NCBI RefSeq assembly: GCF_003790525.1
Contig: NZ_CP033635.1
DNA: 64,000 nucleotides
Reading direction: 5' to 3' (one strand)
Source of the DNA: Escherichia coli
GTDB taxonomy: Bacteria; Pseudomonadota; Gammaproteobacteria; Enterobacterales; Enterobacteriaceae
Below, piece after piece: positions 11,451 through 59,394 of the stretch. The notes beneath the pieces were generated by a model. It did not search any database. It was not told the origin of the DNA and saw only the letters and a program-made list of their open reading frames with translations. The position numbers and the translations under genes are program-made. The number at the start of each line of letters is the position of its first letter. The first letter of the stretch is position 1.

Positions 11451-11652
11451 CGTTCTTTGCAGTAAATAACCTGCGTCATTTCACCTTTTATTGTTTCCGT
11501 TTCGTGTTTTATGGCTTTCCGTATTCTTAATTGTTTAATTTATGTAACATGCAAATAATCAATTTGTTAATCACGACATACAACTCATTACCCTGCAAAT
11601 AATTACAACTGGCAAAAGCCAGAGACGGGCTTTTATGCCCAGGAGATGACTC

Positions 11653-16635: not shown

Positions 16636-16663
16636 GTCAAAAAAAACGCCGGATTAACCGGCG
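16636..16663 (-). terminator. intrinsic terminator downstream of fadD
   Basis: Minus strand ACGCCGG-TTAAT-CCGGCGT followed by TTTTTTTT. Confidence 0.7.
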
Positions 16664-16683
16664 TCTGACGACTGACTTAACGC

Positions 16684-18369
16684 TCAGGCTTTATTGTCCA
16701 CTTTGCCGCGCGCTTCGTCACGTAATTCTCGTCGCAAAATTTTTCCGACGTTAGATTTCGGTAACTCATCACGAAACTCCACCAGCTTCGGTACTTTGTA
16801 GCCCGTGAGCTGACGGCGGCAAAAAGTCACCAGTGACTCTTCGGTAAGCGATGGATCTTTTTTCACAACGAAGATTTTCACCGCTTCACCACTAGAGCCG
16901 GAAGGTACGCCAACAGCCGCGACTTCCTGTACGCCAGGATGCTGCATGACGACATCTTCAATCTCGTTGGGATAGACGTTAAAACCGGAAACCAGAATCA
17001 TGTCTTTTTTACGATCGACAATGCGCAGGAATCCTTCTTCATCCATCACCGCGATGTCGCCGGTGTGTAACCAGCCATTTTTGATGATTTCATCGGTAGC
17101 ATCCGGACGCTGCCAGTAACCCAGCATCACCTGCGGTCCTTTGACACAAAGCTCACCTGGTTGACCAGGTGGTACTTCATTATCATCATCATCCACCAGT
17201 TTGGCTTCCGTCGACGGCACCGGCAAACCGATGCTACCACTATGATAATCAATATCATACGGGTTAACGCTCACCAGCGGCGCACACTCGGTCAGGCCAT
17301 AACCTTCCAGCAGATACTGTCCAGTCAGTTTCACCCAACGTTCTGCCACCACTTGCTGAACAGGCATCCCTCCGCCTGCGGAAAGATGCAGACTGGAGAA
17401 ATCCAGCTGCTGGAACTCTTTATTGTTCAGCAACGCATTGAACAAGGTGTTAACGCCAGTGATAGCGGTAAACGGATATTTCGCTAACTCTTTTACCAAC
17501 CCTGGAATATCGCGCGGGTTAGTGATAAGCAGGTTCTGCCCCCCCAGTTCGATAAACAGCAGGCAGTTAATGGTCAGTGCAAAAATGTGATACAGCGGCA
17601 GCGCCGTCACCACCAGCTCTTTGCCCGGATGCAACAGCGGACCATAGGTCGCGTTAACCTGTTCCAGGTTCGCCAGCATATTGCGGTGAGTCAGCATCGC
17701 GCCTTTCGCCACACCAGTGGTACCGCCGGTGTATTGCAGGAAAGCTAAATCTTCCGGCACCAGTTCGGGTTTGACGTACTGCATCCGGTAGCCGTTGTGC
17801 AGGGCGCTACGAAATGAAATGGCATCTGGCAGATGGTATTTCGGCACCAGACGCTTGATGTATTTAACAACGAAATTGACTACCGTGCCTTTTGCCGTAG
17901 ATAGCTGATCGCCCATACGGGTCAGAATTACGTGCTGAACGGCGGTTTTATCAACCACTTTTTCCAGAGTGTGGGCAAAGTTAGACACGATAACAATCGC
18001 CGATGCGCCGCTATCGTTAAGCTGATGCTCAAGTTCACGCGGGGTATACAACGGGTTAACGTTTACGACAATCATCCCGGCACGCAAAATGCCAAACAGC
18101 GCCACCGGATATTGCAATAAATTAGGCATCATCAACGCAACGCGATCGCCTTTCTTCAGTCCCAACCCTTGTTGCAAATAAGCGGCAAACGCGCGACTGC
18201 GTTCTTCCAGTTTGCGGAAGGTCATCACCTCCCCCATATTCACAAACGCGGGTTGATCGGCGTAGCGCGCGACCGACTGCTCAAACATATCTACCAGAGA
18301 TTGATAACGGTCAGGGTTGATCTCCGTCGGAACGTCCGCGGGATAACGGTTAAGCCAAACCTTCTTCAA
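16684..18369 (-). CDS. fadD: long-chain-fatty-acid--CoA ligase FadD, 561 aa
   Basis: ORF 16684..18435; the 561-aa product begins [33 protein letters not shown]..., implying a TTG start at 18369; AMP-binding motifs present. Confidence 0.93.
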
Positions 18370-33881: not shown

Positions 33882-34084
33882 GTTATGAATTTAGCCAAAG
33901 CTATGTTTAGTGTATTTTTAATAATCAGACATAGCTTAGGCTATATTACCTCTTCCCTTATTTGTTATTTATTTTAACGTTTCATTGATATATAAATCTA
34001 AATGAAAATCGTTATCAATAAAGTGATGAAATAATATATTCCAACAGTTGTTTTATATTCTCAAAATATGTTAAGGTTGCGCCC

Positions 34085-34215
34085 TCATTTGGGGAGTAGC
34101 CGATTTCCAGATTCCGGAAATGTACGTGTCAACATACTCGTTGCAAAACGTGGCACGTACGGACTGAACACTTTCAGTCAGGCGAGACCATATGCACATC
34201 AATCGCTATGCCTGC
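34085..34215 (+). promoter_or_regulatory. Mn2+-sensing yybP-ykoY riboswitch in the mntP 5' leader (approximate bounds)
   Basis: Conserved UUGGGGAGUAGC (34090..34100) and ACAUACUCGUUGCAAAACG / CAGGCGAGACC elements within a roughly 230-nt leader upstream of mntP; mntP is known to carry this riboswitch. Confidence 0.7.
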
Positions 34216-35682: not shown

Positions 35683-35775
35683 GACAACTCCGGCAGGATA
35701 CTAAAGGCCGCAAGTGTAACGCGAATCACGCGGCGGGCAAATATCCGAACGCCAGGAGCGAAGATAAAGCAAAGT

Positions 35776-35803
35776 AAAAAGCCTCGCATTCGGCGAGGCT
35801 TTA
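35776..35803 (-). terminator. intrinsic terminator downstream of cspC
   Basis: Minus strand AAAGCCTCGCC-GAAT-GCGAGGCTTT followed by TT. Confidence 0.7.
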
Positions 35804-35847
35804 TAGCGAGATTGAAGCGTATTCACACTTCAGATCAGTGGATTCGA

Positions 35848-36057
35848 TCAGATAGCTGTTACGTTAACAGCTGCCGGACCTTTCTGGCCGTCCTGAATTT
35901 CGAACTCAACGTTCTGACCTTCAGCCAGAGTTTTGAAGCCATTACCCTGGATAGCGGAGAAGTGTACGAACACGTCTTTGCTGCCATCAGCCGGAGTAAT
36001 GAAGCCAAAACCTTTAGACTCGTTGAACCACTTAACCTGACCTTTAATCTTTGCCAT
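35848..36057 (-). CDS. cspC: cold shock-like protein CspC, 69 aa
   Basis: Full-length ORF; [22 protein letters not shown]... with RNP motifs. Confidence 0.97.
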
Positions 36058-36069
36058 TTGAAAAATTCC

Positions 36070-36213
36070 TTAGATTGTTTTCTTCGCCCGCAGGCATAAC
36101 ATAGATAAAACTGACACATTACTGCATGAGGCACCAATATAAGGCTCGGCAGAGAAGCGGTATTCAACGTCAACGTGTTTACTCAGGACTTCTTTACTGA
36201 AAATGCCACACAT
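36070..36213 (-). CDS. yobF: small protein YobF, 47 aa
   Basis: Minus-strand translation [47 protein letters not shown]; ends 12 nt upstream of cspC (yobF-cspC operon). Confidence 0.82.
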
Positions 36214-36882
36214 AAACAGAACTGTACCTCGTTTAACCCGAAATCTGTTATCACATACAACGTTAATTATGGCAAGCCATTTTTAAACATGTCTCGATCA
36301 GACGCACAAATCTCGATACGTCTTCCACTTTTTTTGCACACTTATGCAACGGAATACGCGCCGATATATCATTGTGCTTAACCTTGCCAGTTCAGGCAGA
36401 TACTTAAACTGACGTATTTTCTAACATAGTTCAATAAGTTCAGTTGTTCCATGCCAATGGGAGAAGTTATTACATAGTGCGTGCAATATCACATTTTCTG
36501 CTATGCAATGAATAAAAAGTTATATCACTTTTTCTCATAAAACAGTCAGTTAACGGCCATCAATCACCCCAAAGAGAAGTCAATCGCCAAAGGTATTGTA
36601 AATTTAAAATAAGAAAAATTGATGAATGCGCAAAAAAATCAAGAGAGAAACGTTTCGCTAATAAATAATACCACGCTTAATCACAAATCCGATGTAAACA
36701 TCCTAATAAATTAATGGGCTAAATATCTTTTTCTGATATCCCGTTACGCAAATAAATAATATGATAATTATTTGAAGTCAGACCAGAGTTTTAATTTGAA
36801 GCAGTTGCACCATGACAGTGCGTATAATCAGGATGAATTGAGTAACCCTTCAACGACGGGGTTACTCAAGATTGAGGAAGGA

Positions 36883-51591: not shown

Positions 51592-51725
51592 CAATATTTT
51601 CCTCCCGCGCTAAAGATCACATAATCTTAACAAGAATGTTAAAAAACGCTGGACTCAGACAGTAGAGTGTGTGTTATGGTTGACTATAAAGTCAGCGAAG
51701 GGAATGCTTCTGGCTTTTAACAGAT

Positions 51726-51828
51726 AAAAAGAGACCGAACACGATTCCTGTATTCGGTCCAGGGAAATGGCTCTTGGGAGAGAGCCGTGCGCTAAAAGTT
51801 GGCATTAATGCAGGCTTAGTTGCCTTGC
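51726..51828 (-). ncRNA. sdsR: small regulatory RNA SdsR (RyeB)
   Basis: Minus strand reads GCAAGGCAACUAAGCCUGCAUUAAUGCCAACUUUUAGCGCACGGCUCUCUCCCAAGAGCCAUUUCCCUGGACCGAAUACAGGAAUCGUGUUCGGUCUCUUUUU, matching remembered SdsR including its 3' terminator hairpin and U-tail; sigma-S-type -10 (CTATTCTTAA) just upstream. Confidence 0.85.
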
Positions 51829-51915
51829 TCTTTAAGAATAGATGACGACGCCAGATTTTCCAGTTTGCGTGCAAAATGGTCAATAAAAAGCGCGGTGGTC
51901 ATCAGCTTAAATGTT

Positions 51916-54741: not shown

Positions 54742-57488
<2,747 letters not shown>

Positions 57489-57667: not shown

Positions 57668-58327
57668 TTATTCCGCCAAAGTGCGTTTTTGTTGTTCGAG
57701 ATCGCGTTCAATGCCTTCACGAACGTCCTGGGGAATTTTCAGCGCGTCACCCAGTGCATTCAGGTAACTGCGTTCCATAAAATGGTCAATATCAATAGCC
57801 GCGCAGCTCAGGAAATAGATTTCCAGCGCCTCTTCTTCATTGCGGACCCCGGTAGCCAGGCGTTGTGGATCCAGCGGTTGTTCGATTGCCTGCTCAATGA
57901 GTACACGCCCCTGCTCTTCCACGCCGGCTTCACGCAATTGCTGGTCGATTGCCGCACGTTCTCTGGCATCAATATGACCATCACTTTTAGCGGCAAAGAC
58001 CAGCGCAAGGATCAAACGTTCCGTACGCTCATCCAGCGGCGTACTTTGCGCGCCAAACTGCGGTTCGTCCTGATGCGCCGCGCGAATTTTATCTTTGTAT
58101 TTATTCCACAGCACCGTACCCGCGACCGCTCCGCCGCCAACCAGTAACGCGTTGGTGCCATATTTCGTAAGAAGTTTCCGTGCTGATTTATTTGCGACCA
58201 GCAGCCCAGCCAGTCCGCCTAATGCGCCTGGCACTAAAAGTTTGCCCAATCCCTGATCCGCAGACGAGGAGGTAGAAGAACGGCTTTGCCCAAGCAGGGA
58301 TTGCAGTTGATTTAACCAGTTAGCCAT
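57668..58327 (-). CDS. yebE: DUF533 inner membrane protein YebE, 219 aa
   Basis: Full-length ORF. Confidence 0.9.
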
Positions 58328-58542
58328 ATTTGCTCCTCAATAACCATTTTTAGTGCCTGTAGCATAGCGGATGAGGATGTCAGAAAATGTATATCGAGAC
58401 AAAAGATGCGCAAATAAGCGAGTCGGTAGGCCGTTATTCAAAGAAATTCGCGCCAGGTAAGGTGTTCACTGTATATCAGGTGATAAGGGTATTTTAGGTG
58501 AAAGTAGTTTGACGTTTTGAGTAGCACTGTTTGATGCTGATT

Positions 58543-58616
58543 GCCCGATGCGACGCTGTTGCGTCTTCTCAGGCCTACGATTGTGGGGCGGACAAGGCAT
58601 TCGCGCCGCATCCGCC
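58543..58616. repeat. pair of REP (repetitive extragenic palindromic) sequences in inverted orientation (BIME-like)
   Basis: GCCCGATGCGACGCTGTTGCGTCTTCTCAGGCCTAC (58543..58578) and inverted copy GGGGCGGACAAGGCATTCGCGCCGCATCCGCC (58585..58616) match the REP pattern GCC(G/T)GATGCG...GCCTAC. Confidence 0.7.
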
Positions 58617-58643
58617 AACGGTCAATCGAATTATCAGAAGCCA

Positions 58644-59048
<405 letters not shown>

Positions 59049-59066: not shown

Positions 59067-59357
59067 TCAGGCCGCGTGTGAGGCATCTTCCTCTTCGGAT
59101 TCAGCACCGACGACCTGTGGGGACGGTAATTTGCCGGTTTTCAGAATGGTGCTCAGCACATCTTTTTGTTCTGCCAGCCATAGCGAAAGGGCTTCACGTT
59201 GCTCGTCTTCCATTTGCACTGGAGAATTTGTCAGCCAGGTGTCAAGCAGATCCGCCGTATCAAGCATTTTGTCATAAGCATCGGCTTCCTTTTTGCTGGT
59301 AAACGACATTTTCTCTTCGCCCTCACGAATGACTACGTATTTAACTTCAACCGCCAT
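59067..59357 (-). CDS. yebG: SOS-inducible protein YebG, 96 aa
   Basis: Full-length ORF; LexA box immediately upstream. Confidence 0.93.
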   Translation of the reverse strand: MAVEVKYVVIREGEEKMSFTSKKEADAYDKMLDTADLLDTWLTNSPVQMEDEQREALSLWLAEQKDVLSTILKTGKLPSPQVVGAESEEEDASHAA

Positions 59358-59374: not shown

Positions 59375-59394
59375 AACTGTGATTTTATACAGTA
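59375..59394. promoter_or_regulatory. LexA operator (SOS box) in the yebG promoter
   Basis: AACTGTGATTTTATACAGTA = CTGT-N8-ACAG palindrome, 20 bp upstream of the yebG start. Confidence 0.8.

Follow-up and report, generated by a model that had tools for sequence, protein, structure and literature searches.

We show here that the spacer between yebF and yebE of Escherichia coli SMS-3-5 contains two inverted REP sequences, and that this pair is almost certainly the SMS-3-5 orthologue of an E. coli element that has been catalogued already as REP135. The explanation that best accounts for our data as a whole, and which we consider probable, is that this REP135 orthologue is a single BIME-2-like pair that protects the 3′ end of the upstream mRNA and takes part in a Rho-dependent insulation of the two genes. 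The DNA analysed, referred to below as the window, is a stretch of 64 kb from SMS-3-5, and its yebE–yebF spacer (58328–58643) is a 100% match to NC_010498.1. The features of the locus, in window coordinates, are the following:

55401–57461, minus strand: ptrB (RefSeq annotation)
57668–58327, minus strand: yebE (RefSeq annotation)
58328–58421, minus strand: yebE-proximal spacer, conserved across Enterobacteriaceae and outside the repeat; it forms the downstream limit of an Escherichia-specific block at 58422–58643
58417–58541, minus strand: C-rich, G-poor single-copy tract, downstream of the second hairpin in the sense direction; presumed Rho-utilisation region
58542–58578, minus strand: unit A, a z2-type REP and the second hairpin on the yebF sense strand (plus strand TGCCCGATGCGACGCTGTTGCGTCTTCTCAGGCCTAC; minus strand GTAGGCCTGAGAAGACGCAACAGCGTCGCATCGGGCA)
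58579–58582, unstranded: GATT linker of 4 nt, joining unit A at its CTAC end to unit B at its GTGG end
58583–58616, plus strand: unit B, a y-type REP consisting of GTGG and then an imperfect palindrome (plus strand GTGGGGCGGACAAGGCATTCGCGCCGCATCCGCC)
58617–58643, minus strand: segment of 27 nt from the yebF stop codon to the first hairpin, within the Escherichia-specific block
58644–59000, minus strand: yebF (RefSeq annotation), with its stop codon at 58644–58646
59067–59357, minus strand: yebG (RefSeq annotation)
from 59491, plus strand: purT (RefSeq annotation)

The REP pair is located in the 3′ untranslated region of yebF and upstream of yebE, between the stop codon of the former and the start codon of the latter gene. 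Both genes are on the minus strand, and the pair therefore has the extragenic position, between tandem or convergent genes, that is characteristic of the REP family. Units A and B are inverted with their CTAC and GTGG ends facing each other, and their centres, at about 58560 and 58599.5, are 39.5 nt apart. An earlier note on this DNA had described two inverted REPs about 40 nt apart, centre to centre, in the yebE–yebF spacer, and was correct in its coordinates as well as in its description. On the sense (minus) strand of yebF, unit B is the first hairpin past the stop codon and appears in the iREP orientation with a CCAC end.

The two genes appear to be subject to different regulation. Between yebG, which is annotated as DNA damage-inducible, and purT, positions 59377–59392 read CTGTGATTTTATACAG; this fits CTGT-N8-ACAG, which we take to be the LexA box pattern, and is consistent with the annotation of yebG. 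We take the yebE-proximal spacer at 58328–58421 to be the Cpx-regulated promoter and leader of yebE. Positions 58400–58414 within it read CAAAAGATGCGCAAA (TTTGCGCATCTTTTG on the sense strand) and are conserved in all genera aligned; they resemble GTAAA-N5-GTAAA, presumably the CpxR tandem pentamer, and are possibly the CpxR box of this promoter. It has been reported that yebE has a CpxR-regulated promoter of its own (PMC6226299).

REPs have been defined as imperfect palindromes of 30–40 nt with a conserved 5′ GTAG, and they occur as unit types y, z1 and z2 (Ton-Hoang et al., PMC3333891). With lengths of 37 nt (unit A) and 34 nt (unit B) and with internal mismatches in each hairpin, both units are imperfect palindromes within this size range. 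The GTAG is intact in unit A, where it is the complement of 58575–58578, while in unit B it reads GTGG in SMS-3-5 and CTGG in K-12. The same position of unit B is GTAG in the E. coli strains E11 and C9 and in Escherichia sp. MOD1, so that GTAG is probably the ancestral state. In a search of the first 50 kb of the K-12 genome, unit A was identical at 34 of 37 positions to the z-type REP between caiB and caiA (GTAGGCCTGATAAGACGCATCAGCGTCGCATCAGGCA; E 4e-9) and at 32 of 36 positions to the yaaX–yaaA REP copy, and unit B was identical at 29 of 36 positions to three y-type REPs (y REP GTAGGCCGGATAAGGCGTTTACGCCGCATCCGGCAA; best E 3e-5). A hand alignment of unit A with the z unit of the REP325 BIME-2 array, the naRNA4 template, gave 28 identities over 33 positions; we therefore call unit A a z2 unit, a z1-versus-z2 call that rests on this comparison. 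The K-12 loci caiB–caiA, lspA–fkpB and yaaX–yaaA have the same layout as the yebF–yebE pair, namely iREP(y)-CTAC-linker-GTAG-REP(z), with linkers of 12, 16 and 35 nt.

A query of 121 nt across the pair matched 84452 places in 5425 of the 5426 complete E. coli genomes. A genome typically has 15 such places (median), SMS-3-5 has 4, and the adjoining flank of 124 nt typically has one (median); the repeated sequence is therefore restricted to the pair. This dispersal, together with the typing of the units as z2 (A) and y (B), bears out the REP family membership that had been proposed from the sequence of the window. Two possible extensions of the element were rejected. A larger mosaic repeat that includes the flanking 124 nt is incompatible with the single-copy nature of this flank, and a third, decayed REP at 58424–58462, where the sense strand has GGCGCGAAT in common with unit B and a GGCCTAC at its end, was ruled out in view of the fact that this segment is single copy, is detected by no REP method and has a GGCCTAC that is not conserved in other Escherichia species. 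Further REPs in the window were found neither with a fuzzy regular expression nor with blastn-short, using REP consensus sequences, nor with the naRNA4 model, and no other dispersed repeat was seen within the 64 kb. The statement that the pair is the only repeat-family element in the window thus holds, all three REP searches matching only the yebF–yebE pair. The number of REPs reported for SMS-3-5 is low, below 310 copies (PMC3333891), and one REP locus in 64 kb fits this report.

REP135 is listed at MG1655 positions 1929924–1930007 in the class ‘Tandem’, with yebF as its gene and yebE as the downstream gene (bioRxiv 10.64898/2026.03.23.713779 supplement), and through the alignment of the two spacers these coordinates map to 58544–58617 of the window. 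Outside one indel of 10 nt, the K-12 and SMS-3-5 spacers are 97% identical, and REP135 of K-12 has the same spacer, the same two units, the same orientation and the same flanks as the SMS-3-5 pair. The differences are a linker that is 10 nt shorter in SMS-3-5 (4 versus 14 nt), three base changes within or adjacent to unit B, and the tetranucleotide of this unit, which is GTGG in SMS-3-5 and CTGG in K-12. The name REP135 is taken from the preprint supplement; the RefSeq records NC_000913.3 and NC_010498.1 that were examined contain no REP repeat_region features. What is new here is limited to three details: an uncommon loss of 10 nt from the linker, a GTAG that has decayed in one unit, and the finding, from the comparison of genera, that a block specific to Escherichia occupies a terminator slot.

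Two classes of paired REPs have been distinguished: BIME-1 elements consist of z1 and y units with a long linker that contains an IHF site and are present in single copy, and BIME-2 elements consist of z2 and y units with a short linker and are usually found in tandem arrays, with s, l or r motifs at the flanks (PMC3333891). At yebF–yebE, one y and one z2 unit are arranged in inverse orientation around a short linker, as in BIME-2; the tandem copies of this class were not found here, the pair being single and flanked by unique sequence. The element is a single BIME-2-like pair and not a BIME-1. BIME-1/RIP elements, for example the one at yaaX–yaaA, have in common with it an inverted pair, facing GTAG ends and a single copy per locus; however, the yaaX–yaaA linker is 35 nt long and AT-rich, whereas the yebF–yebE pair has neither a long linker nor an IHF consensus. 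The IHF consensus WATCAANNNNTTR occurs in the window only at 11557 and 14484 and is absent in and near the pair. With this result and a linker of 4 nt, an IHF-binding BIME-1/RIP type was rejected, and the binding of IHF, which the earlier note had cited as a generic function of the family, does not appear to apply to this copy.

The REP325/naRNA4 element (yjdM–yjdN) is a BIME-2 with the same inverted y and z2 units and a short, non-conserved linker between the GTAG/CTAC ends. The pair at yebF–yebE differs from it in that it is a single pair and not a tandem array and in that both units are degenerate. Rfam model RF02564 (naRNA4), which was built from the REP325 array, matched the pair with 29.4, 28.3 and 25.0 bits without reaching the gathering threshold of 59.5, and these sub-threshold matches are confined to the yebF–yebE pair within the 64 kb. 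The model spans a head-to-head junction, whereas the junction of the pair is tail-to-tail. The resemblance is due to shared REP units and not to membership of that sRNA family. Several other RNA elements are present in the window. The overlapping antisense sRNAs SraC/RyeA (plus strand, 176 bits) and SdsR/RyeB (minus strand, 114 bits) are located at 51722–51866, the sRNA sroD at 16640–16725 (minus strand, 115.2 bits) and a cspA-type thermoregulator 5′ UTR at 35773–36233 (minus strand, 137.6 bits). The manganese (yybP-ykoY) riboswitch model matched 34083–34179 on the plus strand (41.9 bits against a gathering score of 45; E 6e-8), which is presumably the mntP leader.

The 10-nt deletion in the linker is the only strain-specific feature of the SMS-3-5 pair. 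The linker has 4 nt in SMS-3-5, whereas K-12 and almost every other E. coli have one of 14 nt, and the closest long-linker relative, strain P666, has the sequence GATTGTGGTGCGTTGTGGGG. The 10-nt loss occurred between two TTGTG (CACAA) direct repeats, which fits replication slippage. Using a junction query of 59 nt, the short-linker allele was matched in a single piece in 26 of 5426 complete genomes (about 0.5%), in agreement with the 26 genomes that are at least 99% identical to the spacer; among the matches listed, the other full-length junction matches are in two pieces that span 69 nt. According to the orthologue alignment, no part of the element varies more among Escherichia than the linker.

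It could be argued from this variability that the pair is an active mobile substrate that TnpA(REP) still processes, with the variable linker and the 10-nt deletion resulting from cleavage and rejoining. Unit A retains its GTAG and an interrupted stem, and TnpA(REP) cleaves within linkers and at iREP sites, which has been proposed as the source of linker variability in BIMEs (PMC3333891). However, it has also been reported that the E. coli TnpA(REP) tolerates no substitution in the GTAG (PMC8266576) and that the C|T dinucleotide at its cleavage sites is indispensable (PMC3333891). The minus strand carries the intact REP of unit A; its y iREP site, however, is CCC|CAC, and no CT occurs in the linker. 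The plus strand retains an intact GGCC|TAC site, but its REP, unit B, has GTGG and its type-I site is TGCC|C. These sites conflict with the GTAG and C|T requirements, the deletion is flanked by 5-nt direct repeats, as would be expected for slippage, and the element stays at one fixed locus in 5425 genomes, which together make ongoing processing highly improbable. With only unit A keeping its GTAG and with the C|T at the expected iREP sites changed to C|C, the pair looks fossilised as a mobile element, and we infer that it is a fossilised BIME that would be, at best, a poor transposase substrate. Of the generic REP functions listed in the earlier note, that of a target of REP-associated tyrosine transposases fits this copy only in part: the GTAG of unit B is lost, and the pair would be a crippled substrate at best.

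The structure that the pair can adopt in RNA has been kept. On the sense strand, the unit A hairpin has a folding energy of −19.6 kcal/mol (z −4.7; none of 200 shuffles was as good) and the unit B hairpin one of −18.5 kcal/mol (z −2.45), and the 121-nt region as a whole folds at −45.8 kcal/mol (z −2.46). Unit A folds better on the sense than on the antisense strand (−19.6 versus −13.6 kcal/mol) because two of its stem positions are G:U on the sense strand. In 12 Escherichia orthologues, 98.1% of the pair cells are paired, compared with 33–46% when the 3′ partners are slid by 1–3 columns, figures to be read with the provisos that these orthologues are close relatives, that the shuffle control overstates significance, that shared descent alone can exceed it and that compensatory change is seen in two pairs only. 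All 11 pairs of unit B are kept in the 12 orthologues, with one compensatory change from G:C to A:U, and the inner stem of unit A has a compensatory change from C:G to A:U in two Escherichia species. The locus thus encodes two stable sense-strand hairpins that have been kept by wobble-tolerant and compensatory changes.

This strand asymmetry is of relevance for a possible role at the level of DNA, in which the pair would bind gyrase or nucleoid proteins in the manner of BIME-2 elements and form a topological barrier between the yebG–yebF and yebE units. A combination of y and z2 units with a short linker is of the BIME-2 type, a class characterised by gyrase binding and cleavage of high affinity. 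REPs are reportedly bound by gyrase and Pol I and act as insulators of supercoiling (PMC3333891). On the other hand, BIME-2 elements are described as multiple tandem copies (PMC3333891) and only one pair is present here, REP–REP contacts and nucleoid compaction were unsupported in a recent study (bioRxiv 10.64898/2026.03.23.713779), and the G:U-dependent asymmetry of unit A points to RNA and not to duplex DNA. By analogy with known BIME-2 elements, such a role may be considered but seems quite improbable.

The conservation of the stems also bears on the simplest alternative, according to which the pair is a neutral relic of an old insertion, mediated by TnpA(REP) or otherwise, in an Escherichia ancestor and has no effect on the expression of yebF or yebE. 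Such a relic might be expected to look in part as the pair does: the GTAG of unit B is lost (GTGG here and CTGG in K-12), both units contain substitutions relative to the K-12 copies, and the linker is hypervariable, having lost bases in both SMS-3-5 and E. coli SCPM and having been rearranged in E1V33. However, the stems have remained paired in 98% of the cells, with compensatory changes, while the linker decays, and 5425 of the 5426 E. coli genomes have the pair. We therefore regard neutrality as unlikely, albeit as the most serious of the alternatives considered here, and two further observations described below, the binding of Rho to the region and the position of the pair, also argue against it.

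With regard to transcription termination, no site resembling an intrinsic terminator was found on either strand of 58328–58643. The hairpins are not followed by a U-tract, the sense strand after unit A reading AAUCAGCAUCAAAC, and an intrinsic (Rho-independent) terminator was rejected for lack of this tract. Control of translation through ribosome stalling at a stop-proximal REP is also unlikely, as the first hairpin starts 27 nt past the stop codon; the stalling effect that Liang and colleagues reportedly described in 2015 concerns REPs within about 15 nt of the stop codon. The tract at 58417–58541 contains 37 C and 16 G residues in 125 nt, with local C/G ratios of 3–12, and its excess of C over G is in the top 0.6% of all windows. 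The end of yebF thus combines a stable stem-loop lacking a U-tract with a tract richer in C than in G directly downstream, which is the arrangement associated with Rho-dependent 3′ ends. According to the model of Peters et al. and of Dar and Sorek (PMC6061677), transcripts that depend on Rho have their ends at stable stem-loops lacking a U-tract; the rut sites adjoin the stem-loop on its downstream side, and PNPase and RNase II shorten the tail as far as the stem-loop. The locus shares with the protective 3′ stem-loops of Dar and Sorek 2018 (PMC6061677) both the stable U-less stem-loops and the enrichment of C over G immediately downstream, and it is from these local sequence features that we infer that yebF belongs to this set.

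In vitro Rho-binding peaks have been reported, with and without NusG, at MG1655 1929797–1929982 on the minus (sense) strand (bioRxiv 10.64898/2026.03.23.713779 supplement). These peaks overlap REP135 by 56–58 nt and map to 58417–58592 of the window, so that they cover the C-rich tract and unit A and extend into the first part of unit B, although this evidence was obtained in vitro with the K-12 sequence, in which the linker has 14 nt, and the SMS-3-5 linker is 10 nt shorter. The binding of Rho to this region in vitro argues against a pair that has no effect on its neighbours. The same study describes REP325 as both a partial Rho-dependent terminator and a stabiliser of the upstream mRNA between tandem genes; it also reports that REP325 fragments with 2–4 hairpins are insufficient for Rho-dependent termination and that REPs do not uniformly lengthen mRNA half-lives (bioRxiv 10.64898/2026.03.23.713779). 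A full-text search of the literature found no in vivo 3′-end, bicyclomycin or half-life data on yebF, and yebF and yebE are absent from the supplements of PMC7815308.

Based on the hairpins without a U-tract, the C-rich tract, the Rho peak and the dual role of REP325, we therefore propose that the pair acts in 3′-end protection and that read-through into yebE is limited. Transcripts that read out of yebF, and probably SOS-induced yebG–yebF transcripts, would pass both hairpins. Rho would then load onto the C-rich tract, and termination would take place diffusely before or within the Cpx-controlled yebE promoter region. The resulting tail would be trimmed back by PNPase and RNase II as far as the REP hairpins, which would constitute the stable 3′ end of the yebF mRNA. 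Among the functions that the earlier note had listed for REPs, stabilisation of the upstream mRNA is the best match to the local anatomy, and its operation at yebF is deduced from this match. We would put it at somewhat better than an even chance that the pair is a stabiliser of the yebF mRNA and that, together with the C-rich tract, it serves as an insulator between the differently regulated yebF and yebE genes.

The distribution of the element is of interest in this respect. Of the 5426 complete E. coli genomes, all but one (5425) contain the spacer, and 5419 carry at least 80% of it. We also compared 80 loci encoding YebE relatives, taken from species-representative genomes. In four other Escherichia representatives the yebF–yebE spacer is 279–327 nt long, and both REP units are present in all four. 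The spacer measures 91–101 nt in most Citrobacter, Salmonella, Kosakonia, Phytobacter and related loci (85–103 nt over all short ones), and no REPs were found in the short-spacer loci of these other genera. In an alignment of 15 spacers, those from outside Escherichia align only to the 94 nt proximal to yebE (58328–58421), and the Escherichia-specific block therefore comprises 222 nt (58422–58643). This block consists of the 27 nt that follow the stop codon, the REP pair and the C-rich tract, and the specificity is hence not limited to the REP pair.

In genera without the REP pair, yebF either abuts the yebE promoter or is followed by an intrinsic terminator at the same position. Such terminators, consisting of a G+C-rich hairpin and a T-run right after the yebF stop codon, are present in Cedecea, Franconibacter and two uncultured Enterobacteriaceae, among others; an example is ACGGCGTCGCTTCTGCGGCGCCGTTTTGTTTT, at about 1873–1920 of locus L035, with similar ones in loci L039, L062, L066, L073 and L079. 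The REP pair thus fills the slot of a terminator, which also argues against a neutral relic. The spacer has been enlarged in other ways as well. In Siccibacter turicensis (L046) it is 415 nt long, and a motif of about 40 nt (…TTGCTGATGTGCTG…) is repeated several times within it; in Cedecea colo (L072) it is 264 nt long, and two copies of the terminator-like hairpin TCTCGCCGGGGTTGCCCGGCG lie on either side of another strong hairpin. These expansions may be lineage-specific repeat insertions at the same site. In E. coli 50EVAW (NZ_CP138407.1; L089, 1748–2445), an IS1 of the IS1X2 family has entered the single-copy portion of the spacer, with the REP pair on one side and the yebE promoter region on the other, and has left the REPs themselves uninterrupted.

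A more far-reaching scenario, which we put forward tentatively, is that the REP pair and the 124-nt C-rich tract entered the locus jointly as the 222-nt block and in this way created a Rho-dependent terminator or insulator with a built-in 3′ cap between the SOS-linked yebG–yebF and the Cpx-controlled yebE. The block would have replaced an ancestral arrangement, retained in Citrobacter and Salmonella, that has yebF directly next to the yebE promoter, and the pair would represent a domesticated and immobilised BIME. If this were the case, the rare 10-nt linker deletion may tune how the insulator works.

REP135 is catalogued in K-12 and REP biology is well described, and the significance of our findings beyond a correct annotation is accordingly small. 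Nevertheless, the locus combines a single REP pair and a C-rich tract between genes whose regulation is independent and has been well characterised, with SOS control for yebG and Cpx control for yebE, and may therefore provide a small natural test case for the model in which REPs act both as terminators and as stabilisers. Close relatives offer natural ‘empty-site’ and ‘intrinsic-terminator’ comparators for such an investigation, and the short-linker allele of SMS-3-5 is likewise available in nature.
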